Shown piece by piece: positions 8,469-28,587 of a DNA stretch of 51,295 nucleotides. The stretch is from NCBI GenBank assembly GCA_049322675.1, contig JBMORM010000020.1:1-51295 (forward strand). The letters run 5' to 3'. Below the pieces are notes generated by a model. The model had not been told where the DNA came from and did not search any database. It saw only the letters and a list, made by a program, of their open reading frames with translations. The first letter of the stretch is position 1, and the number at the start of each line of letters is the position of its first letter. The position numbers and the translations under genes were made by a program. The stretch is from Patescibacteria group bacterium. Lineage in GTDB: Bacteria; Patescibacteriota; JAHJAL01.

Positions 8469-8877
8469 TATTGCGGGGGCGGGAGCGATCGAGTTCGATA
8501 AAAAATATTCTCTGCCAGGTGCCGAGATTCATTTTTCCGTCGATTACTTGCAAAGAAATACTAGTGGGTAAAAAGATGGCGTTGCAGTGGGAATGTCCGT
8601 TGACGCAGCCGTCGCCGTTGCAAGCATGGGATTCGTTGTGTTCGTAGTCGCCATTTTCGGGATTAAAGGCGGCTAATTTCTTTTTGAAATCACTGAGTAG
8701 TTTGGGGTCGGTAAATTCATTGATGCAAATGGCAGCACTGGTGTGTTCCAAAAAAACATTGATGAGTCCTTTGGTGAGTTGTTCATTGGTGACCCAGGCG
8801 GAAAGATGATGGGTGATGTCTTGCATGTCGTATATTTCGACGCTTTTCAATGGTATTTTGTGGGTTAAAATGCGCAT
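8443..8877 (-). CDS. yjbQ: YjbQ/UPF0047 family protein (secondary thiamine-phosphate synthase-like)
   Basis: 144 aa. Family pattern: DITHHL, TSAAICINE, GHSHC, LQVIDGKMNLGTWQRIFFIELD..RPR. Confidence 0.85.
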   Translation of the reverse strand: MRILTHKIPLKSVEIYDMQDITHHLSAWVTNEQLTKGLINVFLEHTSAAICINEFTDPKLLSDFKKKLAAFNPENGDYEHNESHACNGDGCVNGHSHCNAIFLPTSISLQVIDGKMNLGTWQRIFFIELDRSRPRNISLMYLGE

Positions 8878-9028
8878 GATAAAATGACAATTAATGATAA
8901 ATAATAGTCTGTCATGGTTGGTGCTTTTATAATAGCAGACAGGGGGTGGGATGTGAAGTTGGAACTTTATAATTGATAATTGATAATGAATAGTGAATAA
9001 TAGTTAGTGATAAGAATTTTAACCATGA

Positions 9029-9117
9029 GGAGAGGTGGCAGAGTGGTTGAATGCGGCGGTCTTGAAAACCGCTATCCGTCTTAGGGCGGATCGTGAGTTC
9101 GAATCTCACCCTCTCCG
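9029..9117 (+). tRNA. tRNA-Ser (anticodon TGA)
   Basis: 89 nt: acceptor GGAGAGG/CCTCTCC plus G, anticodon loop CT-TGA-AA, long variable arm (class II), T-arm GTGAGTTCGAATCTCAC. No encoded CCA. Confidence 0.9.
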
Positions 9118-9173
9118 TTTTTTGTTTATGTCTTTTTTTGTACTATAAATGGTTGGTTAGACGTGAATGATTT

Positions 9174-9206
9174 AAACAGTTTGCCGCTTGGCGAACTGTT
9201 TTTTTG
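9174..9206 (+). terminator. intrinsic terminator after tRNA-Ser
   Basis: AAACAGTT..GCC-GCTT-GGC..AACTGTTT hairpin followed by T7. Confidence 0.5.
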
Positions 9207-9281
9207 CCTGGGATAAAAGAGTAGTAATATCGGTTATATTATGTTATAATACTGGGATTGTTTGAAAAATAAGAATAAAAA

Positions 9282-10754: not shown

Positions 10755-10770
10755 TTTAGAGATGATTTAC

Positions 10771-10806
10771 AAAAAAAACAATCCGTCAATTCACGGATTG
10801 TTTTTT
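10771..10806. terminator. bidirectional intrinsic terminator
   Basis: A8-CAATCCGT-caattc-ACGGATTG-T6, between convergent genes. Confidence 0.6.
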
Positions 10807-10826
10807 GTAGAAAATTTATCAGGGGA

Positions 10827-11009
10827 TTAATGGGATTTTGTATAATTGAAAATTAATAAACCAAGGGCGAGGGCGATGGTGATGGTGGCGAGAATCCAAA
10901 AGGTTTGGCTGAGGCCGAAATATAGGTAGAAGGAATAAACAATGCTGGAAGTTATCATGATTATTATATATTGAAAGAGGGATAGAGGGCCGACGAATTT
11001 TTTGTTCAT
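10827..11009 (-). CDS. small two-TM membrane protein (60 aa), hypothetical
   Basis: Internal ATG at 11009 (MNKKFVGPLSLFQYIIIMI...). The longer 116-aa ORF-track version runs antisense through tRNA-Ser and is rejected. Confidence 0.45.
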   Translation of the reverse strand: MNKKFVGPLSLFQYIIIMITSSIVYSFYLYFGLSQTFWILATITIALALGLLIFNYTKSH

Positions 11010-11095
11010 AAATTGGGATCTATTTTGATAAAAAATAATTTTCGAGTTTATCATAACAGTATAGAAATGATAAAATGAAGAAGATGCGAGAGCAG

Positions 11096-11185
11096 GGAGA
11101 GGTGGCTGAGTTGGTTGAAGGCGCTCGACTCGAAATCGAGTATCCGTCGTAAGGCGGATCGTGGGTTCGAACCCCACCCTCTCCG
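11096..11185 (+). tRNA. tRNA-Ser (anticodon CGA)
   Basis: 90 nt: acceptor GGAGAGG/CCTCTCC plus G, anticodon loop CT-CGA-AA, long variable arm, T-arm GTGGGTTCGAACCCCAC. No encoded CCA. Confidence 0.9.
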
Positions 11186-11317
11186 TTTTTTAGAAGTAAA
11201 AGCATATTTTTACTTCTTTTTTTGGAGTTGGTTTAGGGTTTTTGGGAGGGGAGAAATTTTTTCACGTTCAAATAGTGTAAAATAGAGGTGTGGTTACTTT
11301 ATAAAATAAAATAGATT

Positions 11318-12061
11318 ATGAAAAAAGTTTGGTGGATTGTTGGAGGGTGTTGCGCAGTGATGGCGGGGTTGGTAGTGGTAGCGGTGGCAGTGGTAATCGC
11401 CGGGTTGTTGCTTGTTCCCAAAAGTATGCCTGATATTACCGGGATGTTGGGTTTGAATAAGGCACGGGATTTGGGGGTGAGATATTCTTACGAAGATCTT
11501 CAGGCGGGTAGAGAGATTACACAGGTGGAGTTTGAAGATTTGCCGGAAAGCAGCGAGGCTTCTATTCAGTTTTCCGGAGAAAAAGATATATCGGGAGAAT
11601 TTTCCAGTGAGATGATAACGGCGATGATCAGTGGGGCGACGTACAAATATTATCCCTTGACCAATACTCAGGTAAAAATATATCCGGGAGGTTTGATTGA
11701 AACTTCGGGGAATATTGATATATCCAAACTGGTGAAGTGGGCGACCGATCTCAATGCTGATCCGGAAGTAACCGGTCAGATTGATCAATATATTGGTGGG
11801 ATAGCGGCCAATCCCAGTTTTTATCTCAAAGGGACAATGTCGGTGACTAACAATAATGTTGATTTGAATGTGCAGCAGGCGCAGATCTCGGTGTTGCAGG
11901 TGGACAAGGCGACTATTGATCAATATCAGGGTCAGGTAGCCGATTTTGTGGAAGAAAGGATTGCCAATGTGCCGGGGATGGATGTGCGGTCGGCGGATTT
12001 TTCTTCGGGAAAATTGATATTGGATGCAAGTTATCCTGAAATTGAGAAAACTTTGAAGTAA
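11318..12061 (+). CDS. membrane-anchored hypothetical protein
   Basis: 247 aa. N-terminal TM (WWIVGGCCAVMAGLVVVAVAVVIAGLLLV) followed by a soluble domain with no recognised motifs. Confidence 0.6.
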   Translation: MKKVWWIVGGCCAVMAGLVVVAVAVVIAGLLLVPKSMPDITGMLGLNKARDLGVRYSYEDLQAGREITQVEFEDLPESSEASIQFSGEKDISGEFSSEMITAMISGATYKYYPLTNTQVKIYPGGLIETSGNIDISKLVKWATDLNADPEVTGQIDQYIGGIAANPSFYLKGTMSVTNNNVDLNVQQAQISVLQVDKATIDQYQGQVADFVEERIANVPGMDVRSADFSSGKLILDASYPEIEKTLK

Positions 12062-12099
12062 CGAGGTGGATTATTTGTTTCGGATAAAAAATATTTTTC

Positions 12100-12819
12100 A
12101 TGAAAATTAGTCAGAAAATATGGAGTTTGGTAATACTGGCGGTGGTGATATTGGCGATTGCGGCGGTTGGGACTTATTATGTAAGTCGTGCTCGGACATG
12201 GCAGTTGTTTGGCAATCTTTATTGGCGAGTCGATACGCAGGAAAAAGTGGTAGCCTTGACTTTTGATGATGCGCCCTCAAAATATGTTGATGAAGTGTTG
12301 ACTGAATTGCAAAAACAGGACGTTAAAGCGACGTTTTATGTAGTGGGGGCGGGTTTGGAAAAAGATCCGGAGATTGGAAAAAGCATTGTGGCGGCCGGAC
12401 ATGAGTTGGGGAATCATTCTTATTCTCATAAACGCTTTGTTTTTAAATCTCAGGAATATATTGATGCAGAGATTTCCAAAACCAATGATTTGATAATGGC
12501 GGCGGGATATACCGGGGAGATTACTTTTCGGCCGCCAAATGGAAAAAAATTGTTTGGTTTGCCTTGGTATTTGTATCGACATCAGATAAAGACAGTGATG
12601 TGGGATGTGGAGCCGGATACGAAATACGCCGGTGACGTCGATAAGATTATTACTTCGACTTTGGAGGAGACCAGGCCCGGTTCGATTATTCTTTTGCATC
12701 CTTTTTGTGGTCAGGAGTGTGCGGCTGATCGAGAAGCTTTGCCGGAGATAATATCCAGTTTGAAAGAGCGGGGCTATCGATTTGTGACGATAAATGAGTT
12801 GATAAAAATGAGCAATTAG
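12100..12819 (+). CDS. polysaccharide deacetylase (NodB homology, CE4), membrane-anchored
   Basis: NodB motifs ALTFDDAP, GHELGNHSYSH, FRPPNG and IILLHP, plus an N-terminal TM. Confidence 0.85.
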   Translation: MKISQKIWSLVILAVVILAIAAVGTYYVSRARTWQLFGNLYWRVDTQEKVVALTFDDAPSKYVDEVLTELQKQDVKATFYVVGAGLEKDPEIGKSIVAAGHELGNHSYSHKRFVFKSQEYIDAEISKTNDLIMAAGYTGEITFRPPNGKKLFGLPWYLYRHQIKTVMWDVEPDTKYAGDVDKIITSTLEETRPGSIILLHPFCGQECAADREALPEIISSLKERGYRFVTINELIKMSN

Positions 12820-12851
12820 TAAGATTAATAAATTTTTATGAAAAAAATAAT

Positions 12852-13148
12852 TTGATCGGGATAGCATTAAAACAGGCGGTGGGGGTTTTTGGTTATGTGC
12901 TGTTGGTCTCTTTGTTTATGAATAATGCGGAAAAGATTTTTGGAAAAGAAGATGGTTTGTGGGCGCCGGTGGCGTTTTTGATGTTGTTTGTGATTTCGGC
13001 GGCTGTCACCGGATTTATGGTATTGGGAAAATCGGTGATGTTTTATCTGGATGGGGCCAAAAAAGAAGCAATCAAATTGTTGATGCTGACGGTGGGCTGG
13101 ATGGCGATCATGATGTTGTTGGTGATGTTGGGATTGTTGGTTTTTTAA
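12852..13148 (+). CDS. small integral membrane protein, hypothetical
   Basis: 98 aa, TTG start, three hydrophobic segments. Co-directional with its neighbours. Confidence 0.5.
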   Translation: MIGIALKQAVGVFGYVLLVSLFMNNAEKIFGKEDGLWAPVAFLMLFVISAAVTGFMVLGKSVMFYLDGAKKEAIKLLMLTVGWMAIMMLLVMLGLLVF

Positions 13149-13161
13149 ATTATAGAAAAAG

Positions 13162-14211
13162 ATGAAACAATCTTGGCAACTGATTTTGTATAGTTTTTGT
13201 CATTTGGTGGTGGATCTGGTTTGCGTGGCGTTGGTTTTGAGTTCGCAAAGATTGGGGATGATAGCGGAAGTTCAGTATTGGTGGTTGATTGTGACGTACA
13301 ATTTTTTGGCGTTTGGGACGCAGGTTGGTTGGGGGATATGGCTGGACAAATGGCAAAAGCCGAAGAATGCAGTAATGATCAGTTTTTTGTTGATTATTTT
13401 TGGGTGTTTGTCGGCCGGGCTAAATGTGTATGCGATGGTAATATTGTTGGGTTTGGGAAATGCTTTGTTTCATGTGGGAGCGGGAAGTTGGGTATTGAAT
13501 ATATCTGAGGGAAAGGCAAGTAAACCGGGTCTATTTGTGGCGCCGGGAGCGTTGGGGTTGTTTTTGGGAGTTGTCTGGTCCAAAGCCGAGATAGAGTATT
13601 ATTGGATTTTGGTTTTTTTGATGGGTTTGTGTCTGATTTTAGTTTTTTTGCTGGTAAAACTGGGGAGTAGCTATCAAAAAAAATTTGTTAAAGTTAATTT
13701 TGCTTGGGAGTTGGTGTTGTTTTTGATGTTGCTAACAGTGCAGTTGCGCTCGTTGCTTGGGGTGATTTTGGTTTTTTCTTGGAAGAGTAATCTTGTCTGG
13801 TTAACGGTTTCAGTGATGGGAATTGTTTTCGGTAAAGGATTGGGGGGAATTTTGGCGGACAAATGGGGGTGGAGAAAAATCGGAGTAAGCTCGTTGTTGT
13901 TGTCGATAGGATTATTGACTTGGGGCGTATCCAATCCGCTGTTGGCCACTTTGGGGTTATTTTTGTTTAATTTCACGATGCCGATAACTTTGACGGTTTT
14001 GGCTAATGTGTTGCCTGGTCGACCGGGTCTGGCTTTTGGTTTGACCTGTTTGGCGTTATGGCTAGGTGTGATACCGTCGATTTTGGGGTTGGATTATTGG
14101 CTAAAAAATGGATGGGTGGGAGGCGGATTGATTTTGTTGTCGGCTATAGCTTTATTTTTCGGTTTAAAATATTATTATTTGTTTAAAATTGATCATGGAA
14201 AAAATGTTTGA
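13162..14211 (+). CDS. polytopic membrane protein, MFS-like transporter candidate
   Basis: 349 aa with about 10 hydrophobic segments. GKGLGGILADKWGWRKIG resembles MFS motif A (GxLaDrxGrr). Confidence 0.55.
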   Translation: MKQSWQLILYSFCHLVVDLVCVALVLSSQRLGMIAEVQYWWLIVTYNFLAFGTQVGWGIWLDKWQKPKNAVMISFLLIIFGCLSAGLNVYAMVILLGLGNALFHVGAGSWVLNISEGKASKPGLFVAPGALGLFLGVVWSKAEIEYYWILVFLMGLCLILVFLLVKLGSSYQKKFVKVNFAWELVLFLMLLTVQLRSLLGVILVFSWKSNLVWLTVSVMGIVFGKGLGGILADKWGWRKIGVSSLLLSIGLLTWGVSNPLLATLGLFLFNFTMPITLTVLANVLPGRPGLAFGLTCLALWLGVIPSILGLDYWLKNGWVGGGLILLSAIALFFGLKYYYLFKIDHGKNV

Positions 14212-17946: not shown

Positions 17947-18022
17947 TGAAATTTTGTTGTAATTTTTAATATTGAAAATAAAAAATGTATTAGGGCAAAA
18001 AATAAGGCTTTAGACCAGATAA

Positions 18023-18136
18023 GAAGCATTTAATATGCTAAGTATATGGTCTAGAGCCATACTATTTATTGATGCCAGCGAAGTAGGTTATATGGAAGAT
18101 CGGACATATTTCAAAAATGTATGGTTTGAACTATAG
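18023..18136 (+). pseudogene. possible remnant of an N6-adenine DNA methyltransferase gene (C-terminal fragment)
   Basis: The short open frame ...LSIWSRAILFIDASEVGYMEDRTYFKNVWFEL* resembles the conserved (L)FIDA(R/S)..G.M.DRT block found after the catalytic domain of type I/IIG gamma-class methylases. There is no start codon context and the upstream part is missing. Confidence 0.3.
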
Positions 18137-18192
18137 AAATTACTTAGCTGATTTGTTAAGATAAAGGTGATTAATTTTTTAAATAGTGAATT

Positions 18193-19044
18193 ATGATGAA
18201 AAGAAAAATAAAAGTTAAAGGCAAGGAAATTTTGTTGTTAAGTAAGGAAAAAGAAGATTATATTTCGCTGACTGATATTGCCAGATATAAGAATGCGGAG
18301 ACAACAGGACTAGTGATTTCTCATTGGTTGAGTACTCGGTATACTATTGAGTTTTTGGGTATTTGGGAACGAATTAATAATCCAAATTTTAATGTTACGG
18401 AATTCAGTAACATTAAAAATAATGCCGGTTCAAATGGTTTTGTTTTATCGAATAAACAATGGATAGAAAAAACCGGGGCAATTGGTATTATTTCCAAATC
18501 TGGCAGATATACAGGCGGGACTTATGCGCACAAGGATATTGCATTTGAATTTGCTTCTTGGATTAGTCCGGAGTTTAAGCTGTATTTGATCAAAGATTAT
18601 CAGCGTCTCAAAGAGCAAGAGATTGAAAGAGAAAAACTGGGTTGGGATCTAAAGAGAAATTTAGCCAAGATAAATTATAGAATTCATACTGACGCAATCA
18701 AGGAATATATTATTCCGAAAAAATTGAGTGGTAATGATAAGTTTGTTTATGCCAATGAGGCGGATTTGTTGAATAAAGCATTGTTTGGACAAACTGCTTT
18801 GGAATGGAAAAAAACTAATCCTGATAAAGAAGGGAATATCAGAGATTATGCAGATGTCGCCCAACTGGTGGTGTTGGTCAATTTGGAAAATTTGAACGCG
18901 GAATTTATCAGGCAGGGTTTGGTGCCGGAGGTGAGATTGGAGAAATTAAATGAAATTGCGATTATGCAAATTGAAGCGTTGGTGGGTAATAGGAGTGTGA
19001 GGAGGTTGGAAGATTTGGACAACAAAAAAGGGCCATCGTCCTAA
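18193..19044 (+). CDS. KilA-N domain-containing protein
   Basis: 283 aa. The N-terminus IKVKGKEILLLSKEKEDYISLTDIARYKN...ISHWLSTRYTIEFLGIWE matches the KilA-N DNA-binding domain pattern common in phage, plasmid and defense-island contexts. Confidence 0.8.
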   Translation: MMKRKIKVKGKEILLLSKEKEDYISLTDIARYKNAETTGLVISHWLSTRYTIEFLGIWERINNPNFNVTEFSNIKNNAGSNGFVLSNKQWIEKTGAIGIISKSGRYTGGTYAHKDIAFEFASWISPEFKLYLIKDYQRLKEQEIEREKLGWDLKRNLAKINYRIHTDAIKEYIIPKKLSGNDKFVYANEADLLNKALFGQTALEWKKTNPDKEGNIRDYADVAQLVVLVNLENLNAEFIRQGLVPEVRLEKLNEIAIMQIEALVGNRSVRRLEDLDNKKGPSS

Positions 19045-19131
19045 CGGTCAACGCTCTTCTTTTTGATTATAGAAATGTTTATATGGTTTTAGAATATTTT
19101 GAAGATAATTGTAATGTGTTTTATTTGGGAT

Positions 19132-19235
19132 AAAAAGTAAAAAACCTCCGGTTTGGTTGCTGGAGGTTTTTCTTAAGAAAAAATTAATATTTGGGGTGTA
19201 TGATGGGGGCGTTGAGGTTGTTTTGGTGGTAAAAT
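19132..19235 (+). repeat. 104-bp direct repeat, copy 2 (terminator hairpin at 19139..19171)
   Basis: Same sequence as 17843..17946 apart from G>A and C>T. The C>T change converts one stem pair to a G-U wobble. Confidence 0.9.
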
Positions 19236-19266
19236 GAGCGTGTATATTATTTTTTTATAAATCAAT

Positions 19267-20196
19267 ATGGCTTTATACCAATTGGGTAAACAAAAAATAT
19301 GTTTGATCGAAGAAAAGAAAATTGATCTGGAAAAAAATATTCAAGGAGTGATTGAAAATAATTTGGATGAAATATTTGGGCTGCAATTTGTTTGTAGTGA
19401 GTTGCCGCTGCATAATTTTCGGATTGATACATTGGCTTTTGATGAAGAAACAAAATCGTTTGTGATTATTGAATACAAAAGAGACAAGAGTATTAGTATT
19501 GTTGATCAAGGCTTTAGTTATCTGGCTTTGATGATAAACAACAAGGCCGATTTTGTGCTGGAATACAACGAAAAACTGGGAAAAAATTTGAATAAGACGG
19601 CGATTGACTGGTCGCAGTCGAGGGTGGTATTTATTGCCAATAGTTTTACTACTTACCAACAAAATGCGATCAATTTTAAAGATTTGCCGATAGAATTGTA
19701 TGAAGTAAAAATTTTTGAAGACGATATTTTGTCAATCAACCAATTGAAACCAATTTCGTCGACCGAGTCGATCAAGACGATTTCAAAATCCAAGAATGTG
19801 GAGACGGTGAGCAAGGAGATAAAAATTTATACGGTTGAAGATCATTTCAAACCGGGGTGGGAAAAATCGCGGGAGTTGTTTGATGATTTGCGAGAGAAGA
19901 TTTTGGGATTGGATGATCGGATTGAGGAAAAATTTAATAAACCATATATCGGGTATCAGGTTGGTCGCAAAAATATTGTGGCGGTGATCGCGCAAAAACA
20001 GAAGTTGATTTTTGAATTGAATCGGACTGATATTCGAAACAAGGAAGTCAAAGATCCGGAGAAAAAAGTATATTATCGAAAAGATAGTAAGGAATATTTT
20101 AATCAACACATTAGTCGTTTTGATATCAATAATTTTAATGATGTTGATTATGCAGTGTTTTTGGCAAAGCAAGTTTGGGAGAGGTTTTTTAAATAA
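19267..20196 (+). CDS. PD-(D/E)xK nuclease-like (NucS/DUF91-type) N-terminal domain plus DUF5655-like C-terminal domain protein
   Basis: The N-terminus has the pattern LEKNIQGVIENNLDEIFGLQFVCSELPLHNFRIDTLAFDEETKSFVIIEYKRDK (D...ExK). The C-terminal half (YTVEDHF...PYIGYQV...) resembles DUF5655. It ends 8 nt before the methylase start. Confidence 0.55.
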   Translation: MALYQLGKQKICLIEEKKIDLEKNIQGVIENNLDEIFGLQFVCSELPLHNFRIDTLAFDEETKSFVIIEYKRDKSISIVDQGFSYLALMINNKADFVLEYNEKLGKNLNKTAIDWSQSRVVFIANSFTTYQQNAINFKDLPIELYEVKIFEDDILSINQLKPISSTESIKTISKSKNVETVSKEIKIYTVEDHFKPGWEKSRELFDDLREKILGLDDRIEEKFNKPYIGYQVGRKNIVAVIAQKQKLIFELNRTDIRNKEVKDPEKKVYYRKDSKEYFNQHISRFDINNFNDVDYAVFLAKQVWERFFK

Positions 20197-20204
20197 TAAA
20201 TAAT

Positions 20205-22235
20205 ATGAATATTTCACAATTAATAAAATCTGATGGTAAATACGATTTATCAATTTTTTCTGGGGAGAGTATTGATCGTATTGAAAAAAATATTTTTGAA
20301 AAAAATGAGAAATATTTTGTTAAATGTCTAAAAAGGAATAAAGACATTCAAGTAAAACCGGAAGAGATTGTAAGGCAGTTGATGATTGATAAATTGTTAA
20401 GTGAATATGGCTACACAGTTGATTTGATTGATGTGGAATATGTTGTTTCTTTTGGTCGGGAGAAAAAATTTGCCGATATTGTGATTTTGAATAAAGCTGA
20501 TAAAACGAGTATTTATTGTGTGTTGGAAATCAAAAAGCACAAGGCGCAGGATGGCAAAGATCAATTAAAAAGTTATACCAATGCGACTGGTGCGCCGTTG
20601 GCTGTTTGGACCAATGGAGTGGAAATAAATTATTATGAAAGACTAGATCCAAACTATTTTGAACCGCTTTCTGATTTGCCAAAAGCAAATGAAACAATTG
20701 ATGATGTAAAAAATGAAAAATTTACATATTTGGAATTGATGCAAAAAGACAGACTCTTGGAAGAGAGAAAGTCTTTGAAATCTTTGATCCAAGAAATGGA
20801 AGATGAGGTATTGTCCAATGCTGGTGTGGATGTTTTCGAAGAAGTATTTAAACTAATATTTACGAAATTGTATGACGAAATGGAAAGTGCTGATGATCGA
20901 GTAAATATTGAAACTCAATATAAAATAGTTAAAAAACAAAATCCGGAATTAGCTGATAAGCAAATTCTAGAAAAAGTTGACAGTGATGGTTTTAGAAAAT
21001 TGGAATTTAGAAGTCGAGGAGATGCACATCATACCAAAGAAGTAATAAATAATTTGTACCAAAAAGCCAAAGACAAATGGCAAGGTATTTTTGAAAAAGG
21101 TGAGCCACTACGAATTACTGACGAAAACCACTTACAAATTTGTGTGGGTTTTTTGCAGAATGTGAAATTATTTAATTCTAATTTGCAAGTAATAGATGAA
21201 GCTTTTGAATACTTGGTCAACAAATCTGCCAAGGGAGAAAAAGGGCAATATTTCACACCTAGAAATGTGATTGATATGTGTGTTTATATGATGAATCCGC
21301 AAGCTAACGAATATATGATTGATACGGCTTGTGGCAGTTGTGGATTTACGGTCCATACACTTTTTAATGTTTGGCAAAAATTGGTCAATCAAGGCAAAGC
21401 ACATTTTGCCAATTTTTCCAATCAAAAACTGACGAGTGAACAAAAAAATTATGTTGATAAAGTTTTCGGAATTGATTTTGATGAAAAATCTGTTCGCGTG
21501 GCTCGTACTCTAAATATGATTGCTGGAGATGGCAGGACAAATGTATTGCATTTGAATACTTTGGATTACACGAGATGGGAAGAAAAATTAAAAGATAATT
21601 CGTGGGCAAAAACGTATCTTGAAGGATATTATCGACTGTTAGATTTGGCAAAAGATCGTCAAAATCCCAAAGATTTTAATTTTGATATCGTAATGGCAAA
21701 CCCGCCTTTTGCGGGGGATATAAAAGATAGCAGATTGATTTCCAATTATGAAGTTGCCTTTAATGGCAAAAAGAAAGCAAACAAAGTTTCTCGTGACGTT
21801 TTGTTTATTGAGAGAAATTTGGATTTTCTCAAACCGGGTGGTCGGATGGCGATTGTGTTACCGCAGGGGAGATTTAATAATACTAGTGATGAAAAGATTA
21901 GAAATTTTGTTATGGAGAGGGCGAGATTGATCGCAGTGGTGGGGCTAGATGGAAATACATTTAAACCCCATACAGGCACAAAAACTTCTGTCTTGTTTGT
22001 ACAAAAATGGGATGATGAGATCAATCCAAAAGTTGATGATTATGAGATTTTTATGGCAGTGAGTGAGTGTAGCGGAAAAGATAATTCTGGGCTTGAGATT
22101 TATGAGATGGATGAAAATGGGGAGAGAAAACTGGATGAACATAATCATTTGATTCAAAAGCATGATCTGAAAGATATTGCGGAGGCTTTTGAGAAGTGGG
22201 CAAGAGGGCAAAAGCTTGGTTTTTGGAAATTTTAG
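20205..22235 (+). CDS. hsdM: N6-adenine DNA methyltransferase (type I HsdM-like, gamma class) with a fused N-terminal HsdR_N-type PD-(D/E)xK domain
   Basis: Motif I is IDTACGSCGF and motif IV is ANPPFAG, with YFTPRNVIDMCVYMM upstream. The N-terminal ~190 aa carry EEIVRQLMIDKLL...FADIVIL...YCVLEIKK (D-Xn-E-X-K). Confidence 0.88.
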   Translation: MNISQLIKSDGKYDLSIFSGESIDRIEKNIFEKNEKYFVKCLKRNKDIQVKPEEIVRQLMIDKLLSEYGYTVDLIDVEYVVSFGREKKFADIVILNKADKTSIYCVLEIKKHKAQDGKDQLKSYTNATGAPLAVWTNGVEINYYERLDPNYFEPLSDLPKANETIDDVKNEKFTYLELMQKDRLLEERKSLKSLIQEMEDEVLSNAGVDVFEEVFKLIFTKLYDEMESADDRVNIETQYKIVKKQNPELADKQILEKVDSDGFRKLEFRSRGDAHHTKEVINNLYQKAKDKWQGIFEKGEPLRITDENHLQICVGFLQNVKLFNSNLQVIDEAFEYLVNKSAKGEKGQYFTPRNVIDMCVYMMNPQANEYMIDTACGSCGFTVHTLFNVWQKLVNQGKAHFANFSNQKLTSEQKNYVDKVFGIDFDEKSVRVARTLNMIAGDGRTNVLHLNTLDYTRWEEKLKDNSWAKTYLEGYYRLLDLAKDRQNPKDFNFDIVMANPPFAGDIKDSRLISNYEVAFNGKKKANKVSRDVLFIERNLDFLKPGGRMAIVLPQGRFNNTSDEKIRNFVMERARLIAVVGLDGNTFKPHTGTKTSVLFVQKWDDEINPKVDDYEIFMAVSECSGKDNSGLEIYEMDENGERKLDEHNHLIQKHDLKDIAEAFEKWARGQKLGFWKF

Positions 22236-22252
22236 TTTTTACTTACATAAGA

Positions 22253-24064
22253 ATGAAATACACTAAATTTATTGTCAAAAAATTCAAAGGTATTGAAAGG
22301 TTGGAACTAGATCTGACAAAATATCCTGTTGGAAAAATTTTCCCATTGGTTGGATTAAATGAGAGCGGAAAAACAACTATTTTAGAATCTCTAAATTTCT
22401 TTCAAGAAGATTTGTCTGATGGGAAAAAACATGAAATTCTACATAAAAAGGACAGTGGGAGCTTTACAGGAAATATCGAGGTTGAAGCTGAGTTATTGTT
22501 GGACGATGGTGATAATAAAATCATTAAAGATTATCTAAATTCTAAATCCTTTAAAATTGAAAATGATATTGAAAGAATTACGATTACAAAAAAATATATT
22601 TTTAAAAATGCTTCATTTGAAAAGTCAGAATCGACTTGGTTTTGGAATCCAAGCTTAAAGGTAAAAACTGGTACGCAAAGATCTTACAAGGGTTTGTATC
22701 CTGAGAATGAAGAGGTATGGAAAGAGCTAACGAATGAAGTTAAGAAAATTATTCCTAAAATATTATATTTTCCCGATTTTCTTTTCGATTTTCCAACAAA
22801 AATATATTTAGAAAATATCGAAACCATAACAAGTGAAAAGGAAAAAGAAGTACAAAAAGAGTATAAACAAATAATTGACGACATATTACATACCATTAAT
22901 TCTAATTATTCAATCAACGATTTTTTAACAAAACTAAAAGCTTTAACTGATACCGCAAAACAATCTGCTGCCTCTCAAATAAAACAAGAAATTTCTTCAA
23001 TTTTAAATCAAAAAATCGTAGCTCCTTGGCAAGAGATATTTCAGGGACCAAATAAAAACATCATTATTGAAACTGGTAATGATCAAACAGGGTATTTTAT
23101 CCAGTTGAAAGTGAATGAAGGCACAAGTCATTTTTTGATAAATGAAAGGAGTCTTGGTTTTAGATGGTTTTTTGGTTTTATTCTTTTTACAGAATTTAGA
23201 AAAGCGAGAGCTGATGAAAGTGGTGAATATCTTTTTTTATTTGATGAACCAGCAAGCAATTTGCATGAAAGTTCTCAGCAGAAATTGTTATCTCTTTTTG
23301 AAAATTTGATTGATAAATCAAAAATAATATATTCAACACATAGCCCATATCTTATAAATCCAAAATATATTTTAAATTGTTTTATAGTTAAAGATGCAGG
23401 AAGGGAAAATTCAAATGATTATGATTTTAGACAAAATATTAATGCAATACCATATAGGCAGTTTGTAGCAAATTATCCGGATGAAGAAACACATTTTAAG
23501 CCAATTCTTGATGTTTTGCAATTTTGTGCTACCGATTTTGATTTGGCAGACAAGATTGTGTTTTTTGAAGGGAAATTTGATTACTATACTTTTAAATGGA
23601 TATTAAAAACTTTTTTTAATGATGCTTGTTTTGATTTTAAGTTTTATCCAGGGGCAAGCGTTGATAAATATGAAAACATTTTTAGAGAATATTTAGCTCA
23701 TAATAAAAAATTTGTTGCTATTTTTGATGCAGATGGGAATGAGACCACAAAAGGTAAAGGAGCAAAAAATAGGTACATAAACAATATTTCTCAAGAGCTA
23801 GAAAAACAAGTATTTACTCTCAATGATGTAGATCAAAATTTTGATACTTTTACTACAGAAAAGTTATTTACAGAAACTGAAAGATTACAAATTCAACAAA
23901 AATCATTTCCAAGTTATACTATTTTTAATAAAAATCATTTCAATTCAGCGATTCTAGAGCTTTTCATTAGTGAAGAATCTTTCACTTTATCAGACGAAAC
24001 AAAAGAAAATTTTAAAAAAATCCTTGAATTTATTAAAAATAAATTTACCCAATTAGATATATAA
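22253..24064 (+). CDS. OLD-family-like protein: ABC-type ATPase with a C-terminal Toprim/DUF4435-like domain
   Basis: ATG at 22253 (the ORF-track start at 22196 overlaps hsdM). Walker A is GLNESGKTT, Walker B is YLFLFDEPASNLH and the H-loop is YSTHSPYL. The C-terminus has KIVFFEGKFDYYTF (E-G-x-x-D) and VAIFDADG (DxD), typical of Toprim. Confidence 0.7.
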   Translation: MKYTKFIVKKFKGIERLELDLTKYPVGKIFPLVGLNESGKTTILESLNFFQEDLSDGKKHEILHKKDSGSFTGNIEVEAELLLDDGDNKIIKDYLNSKSFKIENDIERITITKKYIFKNASFEKSESTWFWNPSLKVKTGTQRSYKGLYPENEEVWKELTNEVKKIIPKILYFPDFLFDFPTKIYLENIETITSEKEKEVQKEYKQIIDDILHTINSNYSINDFLTKLKALTDTAKQSAASQIKQEISSILNQKIVAPWQEIFQGPNKNIIIETGNDQTGYFIQLKVNEGTSHFLINERSLGFRWFFGFILFTEFRKARADESGEYLFLFDEPASNLHESSQQKLLSLFENLIDKSKIIYSTHSPYLINPKYILNCFIVKDAGRENSNDYDFRQNINAIPYRQFVANYPDEETHFKPILDVLQFCATDFDLADKIVFFEGKFDYYTFKWILKTFFNDACFDFKFYPGASVDKYENIFREYLAHNKKFVAIFDADGNETTKGKGAKNRYINNISQELEKQVFTLNDVDQNFDTFTTEKLFTETERLQIQQKSFPSYTIFNKNHFNSAILELFISEESFTLSDETKENFKKILEFIKNKFTQLDI

Positions 24065-24066
24065 CT

Positions 24067-25425
24067 ATGCCCCAAATAAGCTACATAAAATATTCGGATA
24101 TTTTAAAAGAAAGTTCTGAACTTAGAATTGAAGCAGAATTTTATATTAATTTAAACAAATACAAGATTAAAAAGTTTATTTTTGGGAAAGATATTATTGA
24201 TTTTGTTCAATATGGAACTTCAAAAGACTTGAATGAAGAGCAAAAAGGTTTTCCAATTCTTAGATTAAATGAATTTGATGGATATTATATAGGGAGTCCT
24301 TCAAAATATTCCAATTTAATAACAAAAGAAATTTTCGAATCTTTGAAACTTAAAAAAGGAGATGTTTTGATTTGTAGAACTAATGGAAATCCACATTATG
24401 TTGGCAAATCTGCAATTTGTATGGAAAATTTAGAGGTGGGATATGCTTCATATTTATTTAGAATAAGACCAAATAAAGAAATAAATTCAGAATCTTTAAT
24501 GATCTATTTAAACTCTGATTATGGAAGAAACGAGATAGAAAAACATTCAATGGTTAGCAACCAAGCAAATTTTAGTCCTGCAAAATTTAGACAAATTAAA
24601 ATTCCTCTTCTTCCTCAATCTTTCCAACTACAAATCGAAGAAATCGTAAAATTCGCTTACCGAAAACAAACCCAATCCAAACAACTCTACCGCGAAGCCG
24701 AAAAATTGCTTTTGCAGGAACTTGGACTTTTGGATTATCGAGTCAAACATTCGCTTTGGTTTGCTACAACAAAAAAAGAAATTGATGAAGCCAAAAGATA
24801 TGATAGTGAATATTTTCAGCCGAAATATGCGGAGATTATAAGGAAAATTGAGGAATATGAGGGCGGATATTTCAAATTATCAGATAAAAATTATGCAAAA
24901 ATATCTCGTGGTTCATTGATTCCTGATAGTTTTTATAATTCAGAAAAAGGCAATCCGTATATCAGAGGCGCTGATTTTTCAAGTGGCATTTTAGGAAACG
25001 ATAAACTTGTATTTATTGATGATTCTTTTCAAAAGACAAGGGAGACGATGGTAAGAGAAAATGATATTGTTTTTTCATTAATAGGCAGTGTCGGAGCAAC
25101 TGCGATAGTTTCAAAAAATTTTGATAATTCATTTATTTCAAATAATACTGGAAAAATTCGTGTAATAAATTTTGATCCAGTTGTTTTGCAAATAATATTT
25201 CAGTCTGTTGTTGGAAAACTTCAATTTGAAAAAGAAAAAACTCAAACAGCGCAACCGAAAATTTCAAGTGATCAAGTCGGAAATTTCAAAATCCCTCTCA
25301 TTAAACAATCTATCCAACTACAAATCAATGAAAAAATCCAAGAGAGCCATAGATTGAGAAAAGAAAGTAAAAAATTATTGGAGGAGGCGAAGAGAAAAGT
25401 GGAGGAGGAGATTGAGAGGGGATAA
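24067..25425 (+). CDS. hsdS: type I restriction-modification specificity subunit (two TRDs)
   Basis: 452 aa with two target-recognition halves. Each half ends in the conserved helical spacer: IPLLPQSFQLQIEEIVKFAYRKQTQSKQLYREAEKLLLQELGL, and IPLIKQSIQLQINEKIQESHRLRKESKKLLEEAKRKVEEEIE. It starts 2 nt after the upstream stop. Confidence 0.88.
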   Translation: MPQISYIKYSDILKESSELRIEAEFYINLNKYKIKKFIFGKDIIDFVQYGTSKDLNEEQKGFPILRLNEFDGYYIGSPSKYSNLITKEIFESLKLKKGDVLICRTNGNPHYVGKSAICMENLEVGYASYLFRIRPNKEINSESLMIYLNSDYGRNEIEKHSMVSNQANFSPAKFRQIKIPLLPQSFQLQIEEIVKFAYRKQTQSKQLYREAEKLLLQELGLLDYRVKHSLWFATTKKEIDEAKRYDSEYFQPKYAEIIRKIEEYEGGYFKLSDKNYAKISRGSLIPDSFYNSEKGNPYIRGADFSSGILGNDKLVFIDDSFQKTRETMVRENDIVFSLIGSVGATAIVSKNFDNSFISNNTGKIRVINFDPVVLQIIFQSVVGKLQFEKEKTQTAQPKISSDQVGNFKIPLIKQSIQLQINEKIQESHRLRKESKKLLEEAKRKVEEEIERG

Positions 25426-25510
25426 AAGGTAGTCAAATCTTTGTTTGACAGTAATTATTTTTTATTTTATTATTAGTCATAGTAGTTATATATAGTTATA
25501 TATATTTTTC

Positions 25511-26173
25511 ATGAGAAATAAACTTTCTAAAAACCAGATGATTTTTTTCAAATTTTTAAAAAACTATATTTCTCGAAATAAATATTCTCCTACATATAGT
25601 GAAATGCTCGATTTGTTATCGGCAGAGGGACTGAGGATAAAAAGTAATAATAGTTTGGCTCAATATTTGAAGGTGCTGGAAAAAAAAGGATTAATTAAAA
25701 ACACTTCTTTGCCAAGGGGTATAAAACTTATAAAGGAAGAAGAAAAACAATGTTGTGCCATTCCTTTTTATGGTAAAGCAAATTGTGGTGAAGCATTAAT
25801 TTTTGCTGAAGATACGGTTAATGATTATATAAATATTTCTAGAAAGTATATTTCCGGTGATAAAAATGATTACTTTTTTGTTGAAGCTGATGGAAATTCG
25901 ATGAATAAGGATGGAATTAATAATGGTGATATGGTTTTGGTTAGAAAGAAAAATAATTATTTAAAGAATAAAAATGTTGTTGTGATAATCAATGGATTGG
26001 CAACAATTAAAAAATATATTGAAAAAGATGGTATAACATTTTTGGTTCCATCTTCAACAAATTCAAAACATAAACCAATAATACTGCATCCTGAAGATGA
26101 TATTAATTTTTGCGGTGAAGTAGAAAAGGTTTTTAGTTTTTCAGATATGGATAGCAAAGGAGGTCGAAGCTAA
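25511..26173 (+). CDS. lexA: LexA-like repressor (winged-helix plus S24 peptidase)
   Basis: The N-terminus LSKNQMIFFKFLKNYISRNKYSPTYSEMLDLL...LKVLEKKGLIK is a LexA DNA-binding domain pattern. The S24 catalytic Ser is in ADGNSM and the Lys is in ATIKKY. The linker is IPFYGKANCGEA. Confidence 0.8.
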   Translation: MRNKLSKNQMIFFKFLKNYISRNKYSPTYSEMLDLLSAEGLRIKSNNSLAQYLKVLEKKGLIKNTSLPRGIKLIKEEEKQCCAIPFYGKANCGEALIFAEDTVNDYINISRKYISGDKNDYFFVEADGNSMNKDGINNGDMVLVRKKNNYLKNKNVVVIINGLATIKKYIEKDGITFLVPSSTNSKHKPIILHPEDDINFCGEVEKVFSFSDMDSKGGRS

Positions 26174-26214
26174 CCTAAGTCTGAATTTATTCGTAAGACA
26201 TCCGAAAGGATTTA

Positions 26215-26514
26215 ATGTTTGGAAAAGATATGGAATATGCATGGTTAAAATTTCCCTCACAAGTATTGTATGCTCCAGAGACAAAAGGGGTATATTTATT
26301 GTCTGAATGGGCGTCTGAAAATAGTATTGTGTATATTGGGAAAGCAGATAGTTTGCATGAGCGACTTAGCCAACATCCAGATCCAAACAATCGTTGTTTG
26401 AATAGAAAAAGTATCAAATACTTTTCCTATGAAGAGTGTAGTAATCCTGACATTCGAGAAAAAGAATTGATACGAAAATATAATCCCGTATGCAATGATT
26501 TGCTAAAGGATTAA
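26215..26514 (+). CDS. small GIY-YIG nuclease-domain protein
   Basis: 99 aa with GVYLL (GIY), VYIGKA (YIG), LHERL (Arg), REKELI (Glu) and YNPVCN (Asn). Confidence 0.7.
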   Translation: MFGKDMEYAWLKFPSQVLYAPETKGVYLLSEWASENSIVYIGKADSLHERLSQHPDPNNRCLNRKSIKYFSYEECSNPDIREKELIRKYNPVCNDLLKD

Positions 26515-26520
26515 GAAAAC

Positions 26521-26555
26521 AGGCCTTTGAAAAAAATCAAAGGCCTCTCTTTTGT
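26521..26555 (+). terminator. intrinsic terminator
   Basis: AGGCCTTTGA-aaaaaa-TCAAAGGCCT 10-bp stem followed by CTCTTTTG. Confidence 0.6.
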
Positions 26556-26591
26556 ATTTATATTGTATATTTTTATTTAGTTATTTGAAAT

Positions 26592-26792
26592 GTGGATAAA
26601 AAAATTATGGAAAATTTAAGTTATTTTCTTTCTGTTGTTGCATCTGTCTTAGGTATTGCAGGTTTTGTCTGGTCTTGGATGAATCATGTCAAAATCAAAA
26701 AAATAAATAATTTTGGTAATTATTTTAGTAATATTCATTCTTCGAGAAATGGAAGAGACGGTATTCATATTGGAGATGATAGAAATGAATAA
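26592..26792 (+). CDS. small single-TM protein, hypothetical
   Basis: 66 aa with the TM segment LSYFLSVVASVLGIAGFVWSW. Its stop overlaps the next ATG (ATGAATAA). Confidence 0.4.
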   Translation: MDKKIMENLSYFLSVVASVLGIAGFVWSWMNHVKIKKINNFGNYFSNIHSSRNGRDGIHIGDDRNE

Positions 26793-27342
26793 AAAGAGTA
26801 GCAAAAAAGTTCAGTATCAAATTGTTTCCGCAAATGATTGGTTAAACAAGATAGGCTGTAAAATTGTCGATGGAAAAATTAGACTTCCGATGAAACATTT
26901 GATTTTTCCCCTTATGAAAGCAAGTGAGGAAATGGAAAAGTATAAAAATTTCAAGCGTTTAAATGAACAAATGAAGTGTATTGATGTGATAGCTTTGAAT
27001 GTGAGACAAGCGGATAATGCATATTTTTTTGCGTGGTCGCAAAGCATATTGGTTAGCAATAAAAAGGAAACGATACCAGAAATATTTCCATGTTATAACT
27101 GTTTTCAAAAGACGATATCGTCAGACAATTTGAGAAAACATTTTTCTTCCAAATTACAGAAACTTAGAGATAAAGTTAGTAGTGAAATAATACATGCTGC
27201 AGAAGCTGGGGTTATTGTTTCGTCAAAACATTTTGGTCTAGTTGAGGAATATTATAATGAATTTATAAGTTTAAATATGTTTTATTTTTCAGGAATAAAA
27301 GATCTTAATGTTTGTTTTTGTAAGGAACATGAAAGGAATTGA
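26785..27342 (+). CDS. hypothetical protein (185 aa), Cys/His-containing
   Basis: ATG at 26785 (MNKKSSKKVQYQ...), translationally coupled to the upstream small ORF. CYNC...CFCKEH is a possible metal site. No recognised family. Confidence 0.55.
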   Translation: MNKKSSKKVQYQIVSANDWLNKIGCKIVDGKIRLPMKHLIFPLMKASEEMEKYKNFKRLNEQMKCIDVIALNVRQADNAYFFAWSQSILVSNKKETIPEIFPCYNCFQKTISSDNLRKHFSSKLQKLRDKVSSEIIHAAEAGVIVSSKHFGLVEEYYNEFISLNMFYFSGIKDLNVCFCKEHERN

Positions 27343-27357
27343 TGTTGTTGTTACTAA

Positions 27358-27389
27358 TAAAACACCAGTAAAAATTTACTGGTGTTTTT
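27358..27389 (+). terminator. intrinsic terminator
   Basis: AACACCAGTAA / TTACTGGTGTT stem followed by a T-run. Confidence 0.6.
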
Positions 27390-27496
27390 AAGATTTTGGA
27401 GGATGTCAAAATTATAGCAAGCTGTAATCTAGCTGGATGTTTTGGTTGATATCGTTTATTATCTCGTTTAACTGATTTTCGCGATATATTGAGATA

Positions 27497-27572
27497 GGTT
27501 GGGTTTCGCCGGAGGTATTTTGTGTTAAGGAAAAATTAATATTGGATCGGTATAATGATGGTGGGTGGGTTA
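27497..27572 (+). repeat. degenerate third copy of the 104-bp island repeat
   Basis: GGTTGGGTTTCGCCGGAGGTATTTTGTGTTAAGGAAAAATTAATATTGGATCGGTATAATGATGGTGGGTGGGTT aligns by eye (roughly 70%) with GGTTTGGTTGCCGGAGGTTTTTCTTAAGAAAAAATTAATATTTGGGGTGTATGATGGGGGCGTT. The left half of the hairpin is missing. Confidence 0.45.
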
Positions 27573-27666
27573 TTATTTCGATAATACAGAATTGAAAAGA
27601 GAATCAAATATTAGGAAATTCAAAATAGTTCAAAATATCGCAATAGAAAATAATAAGTATAAATTT

Positions 27667-28221
27667 ATGAAGAAAGAAATTATAAAGTCGTTAACAAATA
27701 ATTTTGAAAGTTATTCCCACAAGACTGATGGGGGAATATAATTTTGGTTTGCTAGAGATTTGCAGCATTTATTGGGATATTCAAAATGGGATAATTTTTT
27801 GAATGTAATTTTGAAAGCTAAAACAGCTTGTGATATAAGTGGCCATGATATATGCGATCATTTTGCCGACGTCGGGAAAAAGGTCAAATTGGGCTCTGAG
27901 AGCGAAAGGGAGATTGAAGACATTATGTTGACTCGCTATGCGTGTTATTTAATAGCGCAAAATGGCGATCCAAAGAAACAAGAAATTGCTTTTGCTCAAA
28001 ATTATTTTGCCGTGCAAACTAGAAAATATGAGTTAATTGAAAAAAGAATTCTGGATTCAGAAAGATTATCAGCTAGACAAAAATTGGCAATTACCGAATC
28101 TGAATTATCAGGGCTGATATTCGAGAAAACTAAAAATGACAAAAATTTTGGATTAATTCGAAGCAAGGGCGATAAGGCGACGATTGAAAACGGAAGACAA
28201 AAAAACATTAAAAAATGTTAG
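27667..28221 (+). pseudogene. dinD: DNA-damage-inducible protein D (DinD) homolog, interrupted by an in-frame TAA and 3'-truncated
   Basis: ATG at 27667 opens MKKEIIKSLTNNFESYSHKTDGGI. TAA at 27739..27741 follows, and the same frame continues FWFARDLQHLLGYSKWDNFLNVILKAKTACDISGHDICDHF...LTRYACYLIAQNGDPKK, colinear with E. coli DinD. The conserved C-terminal half is absent after ...LIRSKGDKA. Confidence 0.75.
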
Positions 28222-28263
28222 AAAGTTAAAGAAGAAATGAAATTATAAAATTTAATAAAAATT

Positions 28264-28587
28264 ATGAACGAAGCAAATATAACTAAAAATAGTGATGATA
28301 GTTTGGAAATTGTTTCGGCGACTGTTAATAATGAGGGAGAGGAATATTGGTTGGCGGGGGAGGTGAAAAATATTTCTGGTGCGAGATTGGATTATGTGGG
28401 GGTGGTGGTGGCAGTGAAAGATTGTGATGGTCAGGTAATTAATTGTGATCAAATATATTTGTTGGGTAATTCATATTTGCAGTCGGGAGAGACCGGTTAT
28501 TTTAAATATCATTTTTCGGCGGCGATGTTTGGCCGAATGTCAGGACTGAAAGTGGTGGTTAGTCCTTTTTATCAAAAGCTAGAATAA
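28264..28587 (+). CDS. hypothetical small protein (107 aa)
   Basis: ATG ORF with a beta-rich look and no recognised motifs. Composition returns toward backbone-like values. Confidence 0.5.
   Translation: MNEANITKNSDDSLEIVSATVNNEGEEYWLAGEVKNISGARLDYVGVVVAVKDCDGQVINCDQIYLLGNSYLQSGETGYFKYHFSAAMFGRMSGLKVVVSPFYQKLE

Follow-up and report, generated by a model that had tools for sequence, protein, structure and literature searches.

What is a nuclease gene of the OLD family doing between the modification and specificity genes of a restriction operon? This question is raised by a stretch of 51,295 nucleotides from a Patescibacteria group bacterium (GenBank assembly GCA_049322675.1, contig JBMORM010000020.1), here called the window and considered over its full length, in which a gene at positions 22253-24064 of the plus strand is lodged between a methylase gene and hsdS. 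In a preliminary description of this DNA the gene had been pictured as a possible OLD/PARIS-like guard of a type I restriction-modification (RM) system or, alternatively, as a replacement for a missing HsdR subunit. The analysis presented here indicates that it is a predicted OLD-family ATPase-Toprim nuclease gene of class-1-like type, and that it forms an optional, exchangeable cassette and no constant part of the RM system that surrounds it. Its product may be a self-contained second-line defence nuclease that is co-expressed and co-inherited with the restriction enzyme, a reading that is held here with about even confidence, while a guard role of the PrrC kind is also plausible. For brevity, A denotes the OLD gene, M the gene of the RM-fusion subunit, S the specificity gene and R the HsdR gene.

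The gene is an open reading frame (ORF) of 603 amino acids which translates without internal stops, and every motif previously quoted from it is present: GLNESGKTT at residues 34-42, LFLFDEPASNLH at residues 327-338 and STHSP at residues 361-365, followed in the C-terminal part by IVFFEGKFDY at residues 435-444 and AIFDADG at residues 489-495. Its ATG lies 17 nt past the stop (22235) of the upstream methylase gene, and its TAA ends at 24064, so that, as had been described, just 2 nt separate it from the hsdS ATG at 24067. An alignment with 50 homologs (43-87% identity) revealed that the ATPase residues K40/T41, D331/E332 and H363 are invariant, as is a Toprim-type acidic set comprising E439, D443, D492, D494 and E536, and the quoted motifs are therefore not due to chance. 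With a Walker A motif (GLNESGKT, residues 34-41), a Walker B/catalytic DE pair (331-332) and an H-loop (H363), the protein displays the ABC ATPase features of the OLD family, and it carries the Glu and DxD of a Toprim domain on the same polypeptide as the ATPase, which is the other family hallmark.

The ABC ATPase domain spans residues 1-368 (22253-23356, plus strand) and is delineated by Pfam AAA_15 (3.6e-22, residues 1-368, together with an AAA_21 match), by the invariant residues, by an AlphaFold2 (AF2) model and by the match to the class 1 OLD structure 6p74; it is interrupted at about residues 55-300 by an insertion of beta-rich and long-helix character. The Toprim core, approximately residues 432-540 (23546-23872, plus strand), is supported by the invariant columns, Pfam and Foldseek, and it is followed by a C-terminal helical region, residues 541-603 (23873-24061, plus strand), for which the AF2 model predicts helices at 541-551, 560-573 and 581-602. 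The PADLOC Old model spans residues 2-536, whereas the AriA, PtuA and GajA models of the same library match the ATPase part only. A database search retrieved more than 3000 full-length homologs, the best 120 of which are almost all of about 600 aa and align over essentially their full length, the closest being from Patescibacteria at 87% identity. The protein had no match in a phage collection, and the matches obtained in a plasmid collection were partial, about 25% identical, annotated 'AAA family ATPase' and thus uninformative. A scan for promoters and terminators returned sites no more frequent than in shuffled sequence and was not used.

The structural comparison that the preliminary description had called for was carried out and bears out the OLD-family architecture. 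The AF2 model of the full-length protein (predicted local distance difference test, pLDDT, 86) has full-length counterparts only in 6p74, the class 1 OLD protein from Thermus scotoductus, and in Gabija GajA, while the remaining strong matches (Rad50, SMC, PtuA) are confined to the ATPase head; a sequence search of the PDB likewise ranks 6p74 first (3.3e-9). When the C-terminal domains of 23 family members (212 residues in the window protein) were compared with Pfam, Toprim_2 was found in 14 (best 1.9e-5) and OLD-like_TOPRIM in 10 (best 3.9e-5), the window protein itself matching the latter over residues 432-494 with E = 0.024 and 15.6 bits, which is below the 23.2-bit cut-off. In the same 23 domains Pfam detected no DUF4435 (the AriB domain), RloB or DUF4276, and for DUF4435 this was so even at E <= 10. 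A domain-only model of the C-terminus (pLDDT 85) was placed by Foldseek closest to OLD C-terminal regions from Burkholderia, Xanthomonas and Thermus, which fill the top six positions and include 6nk8, 6njw, 6njv, 6njx and 6p74 (probability 0.98-1.0, TM-score 0.37-0.53, E-values of 7e-3 to 6e-2, which are weak although the ranking is coherent; alignments over 183-217 columns), with GajA coming next and no AriB chain among the 50 structural matches listed. Since the protein lacks a helicase partner it is regarded as class-1-like: no conserved adjacent UvrD/PcrA-type helicase was found, retron RNA or reverse transcriptase not having been specifically searched, and among 95 immediate neighbours of stand-alone homologs DEAD/ResIII domains occur in 3 only and no family is conserved. 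The window gene is thus, as judged from sequence and structure models, a predicted class-1-like OLD-family ATPase-Toprim nuclease gene.

The position of the gene between a methylase gene and hsdS was correctly described, but the methylase gene is not a plain hsdM. The upstream gene (20205-22235, plus strand) encodes a 676-aa fusion in which an HsdR-type PD-(D/E)xK nuclease domain (Pfam HSDR_N_2, residues 52-159, nt 20358-20681) precedes an N6-adenine methylase (N6_Mtase/Eco57I), and its nuclease signature D91...E108-x-K110...Q120xxxY124 is invariant in 8 orthologs. The best PDB match of this protein is RM.BsaXI, a type IIB enzyme (8w0p, 1.1e-25), and the alignment takes in the nuclease as well as the methylase part; the next matches are 7vru_A (9e-15, named as a site-specific adenine methyltransferase) and named type I M chains at 1e-12 or weaker. 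Residues D91/E108/K110 align with D90/E105/K107 of RM.BsaXI, which have been demonstrated experimentally to be essential for cleavage (PMC11997821). Downstream, S (24067-25425, plus strand) encodes a subunit with two target-recognition domains, as indicated by two stretches of Pfam Methylase_S, by the PADLOC models mad5 and Specificity_I, and by an NCBIfam MAD5 match below its cut-off. In NCBIfam and PADLOC the nearest named families of M and S are MAD2 and MAD5 of the MADS system, far under the equivalog cut-offs: the NCBIfam scores are 302 bits against a cut-off of 720 for MAD2 and 120 against 400 for MAD5, and the OLD protein scores 24.9 against 420 for MAD3.

No HsdR-type protein (ResIII, SNF2, HsdR) was found in the 51-kb window, and none occurs in the flanks (up to 10 kb in genomes, 7 kb in metagenomes) of any locus with the order M-A-S or of any of the 80 loci retrieved with M as query. 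With HsdR found neither in the window nor in about 150 related loci, nothing can be said to be 'missing' from the RM system of the window. It has been reported that type IIB enzymes such as BsaXI act as (RM)2S, with no separate HsdR-type subunit (PMC11997821); an RM fusion accompanied by a separate S subunit with two target-recognition domains is the type IIB composition, and the separate HsdR that defines type I was not found. Because M is a BsaXI-like fusion with conserved nuclease residues and no HsdR was found in the loci retrieved with M, the flanking pair is best read from its sequence as an RM/S system of the BsaXI/MAD2 kind that is complete with two genes and has a nuclease domain of its own, and not as an HsdR-less type I system. 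Relatives of M and S are also found fused as one ORF, as in single-chain type IIB enzymes (L111 5020-7522, L126 2-3097, L162 6998-10489).

That the OLD gene is an optional, exchangeable cassette is apparent from loci that share this RM backbone. A metagenome scan with M as query yielded 80 loci, 67 of which have a readable M-S junction, and this junction holds an OLD gene in 14, one or more other genes in 22 and nothing at all in 31. Thus, M-S pairs without an OLD gene are the majority (53/67), and in the 31 empty junctions, all at 53-56% M identity, M abuts S directly. The alternative cargo includes AAA_13 proteins of the PrrC/RloC family (L118 9083-11338, 4.4e-127; L106 8403-10589), AIPR, PIN, YhcG/DUF1016 PD-(D/E)xK, DUF4357, RhuM/Fic-like and Bro-N-like genes, as well as a D12 methylase accompanied by an uncharacterised gene. 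This agrees with the preliminary idea of an embedded accessory or back-up gene, as PrrC/RloC-type, AIPR, PIN and Fic genes occupy the same slot in sister loci. Furthermore, identity to the window is discordant between neighbouring genes: in L015 and L017 M is 89% identical but A only 49-50%, while in L006 the values are 90% and 87%. Individual examples of slot occupants are an AIPR gene at L091 4711-6393 and a PIN gene at L105 9203-9679; the uncharacterised DUF4357 family fills the slot in five loci (L095, L097, L116, L125 and L133), and a Bro-N-like gene in L096 (10111-10944) is 66% identical to the Bro-N gene of the window.

The wider distribution of the family was assessed by scanning one genome per species across 185,579 species, of which 350 possess OLD-family relatives, spread over many phyla in a patchy manner; the best 80 loci were analysed, and M, S, R and A genes were detected with hidden Markov models (HMMs) built from few seed proteins, so that counts are approximate and divergent genes may have been missed. 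In 26-27 of about 78 informative loci, i.e. roughly one third, the OLD gene resides inside a restriction operon, nearly always adjoining hsdS, and the embedded copies overlap or pack tightly against their neighbours. Within the Patescibacteria clade to which the window gene belongs (at least 47% identity), the order is M-A-S in 29 of 30 loci (27 scored directly plus the UGA-recoded loci L016 and L115), and M is of the nuclease-methylase type; L001 is stand-alone even though it is nested in this clade. More distant members are found in canonical type I operons together with HsdR, in the orders M-S-A-R (L041, L048, L052, L072 and L085), R-A-S-..-M, M-..-A-S-..-R and R-A-M-S. Embedded members are scattered among stand-alone ones over at least eight separate branches of a neighbour-joining tree, which is a quick distance tree carrying no support values, and they therefore represent at least eight independent captures. 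The expectation of the preliminary description that homologs would be linked to RM genes is in this way borne out.

On the other hand, 52 of the 80 genome loci (about two thirds) lack any M, S or R gene at a distance of up to 10 kb, which implies that the family can live alone as well as being repeatedly captured beside hsdS. No conserved partner was found among the immediate neighbours of these 52 stand-alone copies (95 genes), which are housekeeping genes and a few type II RM, Fic, Schlafen and NYN genes. In every context the family members align end to end over about 600 aa, and hence there is no adaptor domain peculiar to the embedded copies. Several loci of the survey use UGA as a sense codon: L016, L028, L050 and L115 carry 4-20 TGA codons in frame and are free of stops when translated with table 25 or 4, as established on the OLD-like gene (L016, L028, L050) and on the M gene (L115), which appear pseudogene-like under table 11. 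Re-scored under table 25, L016 and L115 have the order M-A-S and L028, from Gracilibacteria, has R-A-M-S; L117, L119-L124, L130 and L132 are also probably UGA-recoded, their M and S genes becoming readable under table 25. In L003 a canonical type I operon (1023-14006) contains, between M and R, a D12 methylase gene, two ORFs of no known family, an OLD-like gene and a gene for a Fic protein.

Base composition provides a further indication of how the cassette reached the window. The plus strand of the window (1-51295) has an extreme GC skew of +0.34 (13100 G versus 6496 C) that does not depend on gene orientation, plus-strand genes being rich in G and minus-strand genes rich in C at their third codon positions, whereas the related Patescibacteria loci L002, L006, L010 and L013 show a skew of only -0.09 to +0.11. 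In the composition profile a distinct block, not assigned to either strand, extends from about 22400 to 25400 over the OLD gene and S, with a skew of about 0-0.2 against 0.3-0.5 on both sides and a GC content of 0.23-0.30. Third-position G/C counts are 67/47 for A, 54/44 for S and 139/57 for M; M shares the skew of 0.3-0.5 with the rest of the surrounding island, and A and S do not. As the skew collapses exactly over A and S, these observations suggest that the two genes were imported together, as one block and more recently.

Considering these data together, the OLD protein is best pictured as a back-up to the enzyme encoded around it, and the following scheme may be proposed. The OLD gene would be co-transcribed and translationally coupled with S, together with which it apparently arrived, and it would not be part of the restriction enzyme; instead, it would be one of many swappable accessories between RM and S genes. 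The ABC ATPase, presumably dimeric, would gate the C-terminal two-metal Toprim nuclease, such that a phage-induced cue leads to ATP-dependent activation of the Toprim site and to the cutting of nucleic acid. The target may be DNA, as it is for GajA and for class 1 and class 2 OLD proteins, with tRNA, the target of PARIS, as another possibility. If an invader evades the first-line enzyme, the OLD nuclease would then act as a back-up of the abortive-infection type. Modules of this kind, in which an OLD-type ABC ATPase is combined with a Toprim or other nuclease, have already been catalogued in BREX and RM-like operons and interpreted as back-up effectors (PMC12839542).

Several points weigh against this scheme. 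A precise, repeated and translationally coupled insertion next to hsdS exceeds what is expected from ordinary clustering in defence islands, and direct coupling to a guard would account for it no less well. Among loci with M identities of 65% or more, about 36 of 38 have an occupied slot, and a junction that is almost never empty in this range could mean that the system needs a third component in order to function, so that the cassette would not be optional. The closest named relatives of M and S are MAD2 and MAD5, and defence by MADS depends on two proteins encoded at the corresponding position, the OLD-type ATPase Mad3 and the Toprim protein Mad4 (bioRxiv 10.1101/2023.03.30.534895; PMC12065111). 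Finally, the detection of RM genes relied on home-made HMMs, which may have missed divergent M, S and R genes.

Among the alternatives, the one that survives best is a guard like PrrC or PARIS, in which the OLD protein would lie latent on, or monitor, the (RM)2S complex or S and would fire, by growth arrest or nucleic-acid cleavage, once the enzyme is put out of action by an anti-restriction factor of a phage, for example a DNA mimic or Stp-like peptide. The recurrent capture beside hsdS with translational coupling speaks for such a guard, as does the M-S-A-R order of five canonical loci, in which A is placed as prrC is in EcoprrI, and as do the AAA_13 genes that sister loci carry between M and S, where the window has the OLD gene. 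There are also precedents: PrrC and PARIS have been documented as guardians of RM systems (PMC12707154), and P2 Old, the founding class 1 OLD protein, responds to inactivation of the host nuclease RecBCD (PMC10802454). In MADS, deletion of mad5, the S gene, is lethal unless mad2 or mad3, which encodes the OLD-type ATPase, is deleted too (bioRxiv 10.1101/2023.03.30.534895), as would be expected of a guard that senses a perturbed complex. However, with about two thirds of the family standing alone and having no conserved partner, the OLD protein must be able to function without an RM complex, and no extra domain separates embedded from stand-alone members. A tightly co-adapted interface between A and M is likewise disfavoured, because A cassettes have been exchanged among near-identical M backbones, and an AriB-type domain is lacking. 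Such a guard is considered possible and less probable than a self-contained back-up nuclease.

A broader version of the same idea places the emphasis on the junction itself. It is conceivable, with somewhat less confidence than for a guard specific to this protein, that the RM-S junction in the Patescibacteria-centred RM.BsaXI/MAD2-like subfamily constitutes a dedicated effector-swap site, at which the RM complex would serve as a common sensor or latch restraining interchangeable abortive-infection effectors. If this were true, the window gene would provide the first demonstration of an OLD-family nuclease under the control of a restriction enzyme, and the arrangement of PrrC and EcoprrI would become generalised and modular.

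It appears rather improbable that the OLD protein is an integral component comparable to those of MADS, i.e. that the RM and S proteins recognise and methylate DNA and the ATPase-Toprim protein is required to exclude unmodified DNA in the manner of Mad3 and Mad4. The proximity of M and S to MAD2 and MAD5 is compatible with such a role, and in MADS an OLD-ABC ATPase and a DUF4276 Toprim are located between mad2 and mad5 and are needed for defence and not for methylation (bioRxiv 10.1101/2023.03.30.534895; PMC12065111). The almost exclusive M-A-S order of the window's own clade and the rarity of empty slots within its RM subfamily point in the same direction. These observations are outweighed by the MAD2, MAD3 and MAD5 scores far below their equivalog cut-offs and by the absence of mad6-8, which are mandatory in the MADS detection model (the corresponding models not having been run on every ORF). 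In addition, most related M-S loci have no OLD gene and almost half of the readable junctions are empty, the alternative occupants are unrelated toxins and nucleases, M carries its own conserved BsaXI-type catalytic triad, and in three loci M and S form a single chain.

A role outside defence, for instance as an ABC-Toprim protein for DNA repair or housekeeping, or as a decaying remnant, could be entertained in view of the many stand-alone copies among housekeeping genes; it is most unlikely given an intact ORF with all catalytic residues invariant, the patchy occurrence in 350 species genomes, the enrichment of copies in restriction operons, the location of others near type II RM, Schlafen, NYN and Fic genes, and the placement of the window copy in a low-GC island with mobile-element genes. 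The least tenable proposal is that the protein substitutes for the absent motor-nuclease HsdR of a type I system, which the preliminary description had offered on the strength of an apparently missing subunit and which is here rejected: HsdR is indeed lacking from the window and from the flanks of M-A-S loci, but M has its own BsaXI-type nuclease in a type IIB RM fusion that would work without such a subunit, M-S pairs without A are common, the same OLD family occurs beside a full HsdR in canonical loci, and OLD/Rad50-type ABC ATPases are not known to translocate DNA.

Returning to the reading of the OLD protein as a second-line nuclease, its significance should be seen in relation to what has already been published. 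The window gene belongs to an OLD lineage that is class-1-like, with ATPase and Toprim fused, and it is lodged in an operon that resembles type IIB loci, an arrangement of a known sort, since both OLD-type ABC/Toprim back-up effectors in RM-like and BREX operons and the guardians PrrC and PARIS have been described. As the general concept is in the literature, the finding is incremental unless coupling is demonstrated. It nevertheless adds a well-populated family, with more than 3000 proteins and representatives in 350 species genomes, to the accessory genes that are housed in restriction operons. What goes somewhat beyond the literature consulted is the observation that the RM-S junction is a slot in which many alternative toxins sit on near-identical RM backbones; in bacteria of the candidate phyla radiation this junction acts as a cargo slot for diverse toxins and nucleases. 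The same backbone with different cargo or none provides a natural, isogenic-like set with which true guards may be separated from co-travelling back-ups. Moreover, an annotation error that is easily made is corrected: what looks like an 'HsdR-less type I system' is more convincingly interpreted as an RM/S enzyme resembling those of type IIB.

The immediate surroundings of the operon contain further genes of defence or mobile-element character. Upstream of M, at 19267-20196 on the plus strand, lies a DUF5655 gene whose product is recognised by the PADLOC model of the phage-defence candidate PDC-S18 (8.1e-100); only 8 nt separate this gene from the RM-fusion gene, and it has a homolog upstream of M in L017 and is probably another accessory gene of the RM operon. 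Otherwise, the operon is flanked by small ORFs only, encoding KilA-N, LexA-like, GIY-YIG and Bro-N domains. These belong to a low-GC island at about 18000-28300 (0.28-0.35 versus about 0.40) with genes of mobile-element type, namely a KilA-N gene at 18193-19044, a gene for a LexA-like S24 peptidase at 25511-26173, a GIY-YIG gene at 26215-26514 and a Bro-N gene at 27760-28221. Just past the GIY-YIG gene, a perfect 10-bp palindromic hairpin (AGGCCTTTGA...TCAAAGGCCT, 26521-26546) with T-runs on both strands looks like a putative bidirectional terminator. Elsewhere in the window, a 3116-aa ORF (36503-45853, plus strand) with only weak BNR_2 and MG2 matches is followed by an 881-aa ORF (45959-48604, plus strand) with no Pfam match, both probably encoding giant surface proteins. 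A 569-aa ORF at 843-2552 (GTG at 843) overlaps tRNA-Met at 828-901, and because of this overlap its start probably lies further downstream.

Among known systems, class 1 OLD proteins, represented by P2 Old and 6P74, are closest to the window protein, which is likewise a single polypeptide with an ABC ATPase, a Toprim domain and a helical region and has no helicase partner. It differs from them in being only about 14% identical to 6p74, in carrying a larger insertion in the ATPase and in belonging to a family of which about one third is embedded in restriction operons, a feature that, to our knowledge, has not been described for class 1 OLD proteins. Gabija GajA (class 2; 8SM3, 8X5I, 8U7I) is also an ATPase-Toprim fusion, and the window protein aligns with it at full length over 668-706 columns, but no GajB/UvrD-type helicase is adjacent in the window or conserved as a neighbour elsewhere, and the PADLOC GajA matches are weaker and partial. 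Membership of Gabija was rejected, there being no trace of the GajB helicase in the operon and none conserved beside homologs.

PARIS shares with the window gene an OLD-type ABC ATPase and a Toprim domain, and PADLOC AriA (PDLC02979) matches residues 1-368 at 8.3e-24, a region of generic AAA_15 fold that the Old, PtuA and GajA models also recognise. The Toprim domain of the window protein is of the OLD/Toprim_2 type and not DUF4435, and it is fused to the ATPase, whereas PARIS is a two-protein AriA6:AriB3 complex. The label 'PARIS-like' of the preliminary description cannot be retained, and membership was rejected because neither Pfam (E <= 10) nor the 50 listed matches of the fold search included a DUF4435/AriB-type domain; by analogy, a conceptual tie to anti-restriction may still be shared. 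A search of the main text of Rousset 2022 by a handful of terms returned no statement that PARIS co-localises with RM systems. PrrC/RloC, as in EcoprrI, resembles the window gene in joining an ABC-type NTPase to a nuclease within a restriction operon beside hsdS, and AAA_13 genes occupy the same slot in L106 and L118. The ATPase of the window protein is AAA_15/AAA_21 and not AAA_13, and its nuclease is a Toprim and not the PrrC anticodon-nuclease domain; with AAA_15 and AAA_21 matches, a Toprim C-terminus and no AAA_13 match, membership of PrrC/RloC was rejected as well.

Accessory genes in hsd loci have long been recognised, as exemplified by the 'restriction-linked' rloA and rloB genes of unknown function inside Campylobacter hsd islands (PMC2928727), and RloB and Mad4 (DUF4276) are Toprim proteins (PMC12065111). 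RloA/RloB are thus, like the embedded gene of the window, accessory genes of a restriction locus (there a type I hsd island), with RloB in the Toprim superfamily; they differ in being two separate, overlapping genes, in a comparison made from their description only, and the window has no RloB match. MADS displays the same order of methylase, ATPase/Toprim and specificity genes, and its MAD2 and MAD5 are the nearest relatives of M and S. However, functions that are split between Mad3 and Mad4 are fused in the window gene, where the Mad3 match is weak and N-terminal and DUF4276 is lacking; membership of MADS was rejected in view of MAD2, MAD3 and MAD5 scores far below cut-offs and of the absence of mad6-8, for which the MAD6-8 models were not run on every ORF. 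As for the enzyme itself, M is shorter than BsaXI (676 versus 916 aa), and profile libraries put it nearer to MAD2; with the type IIB enzymes BsaXI and BcgI the window shares an RM fusion, consisting of a PD-(D/E)xK nuclease and a gamma-class N6-adenine methylase, together with an HsdS-like subunit, and its relatives include single-chain RMS forms.

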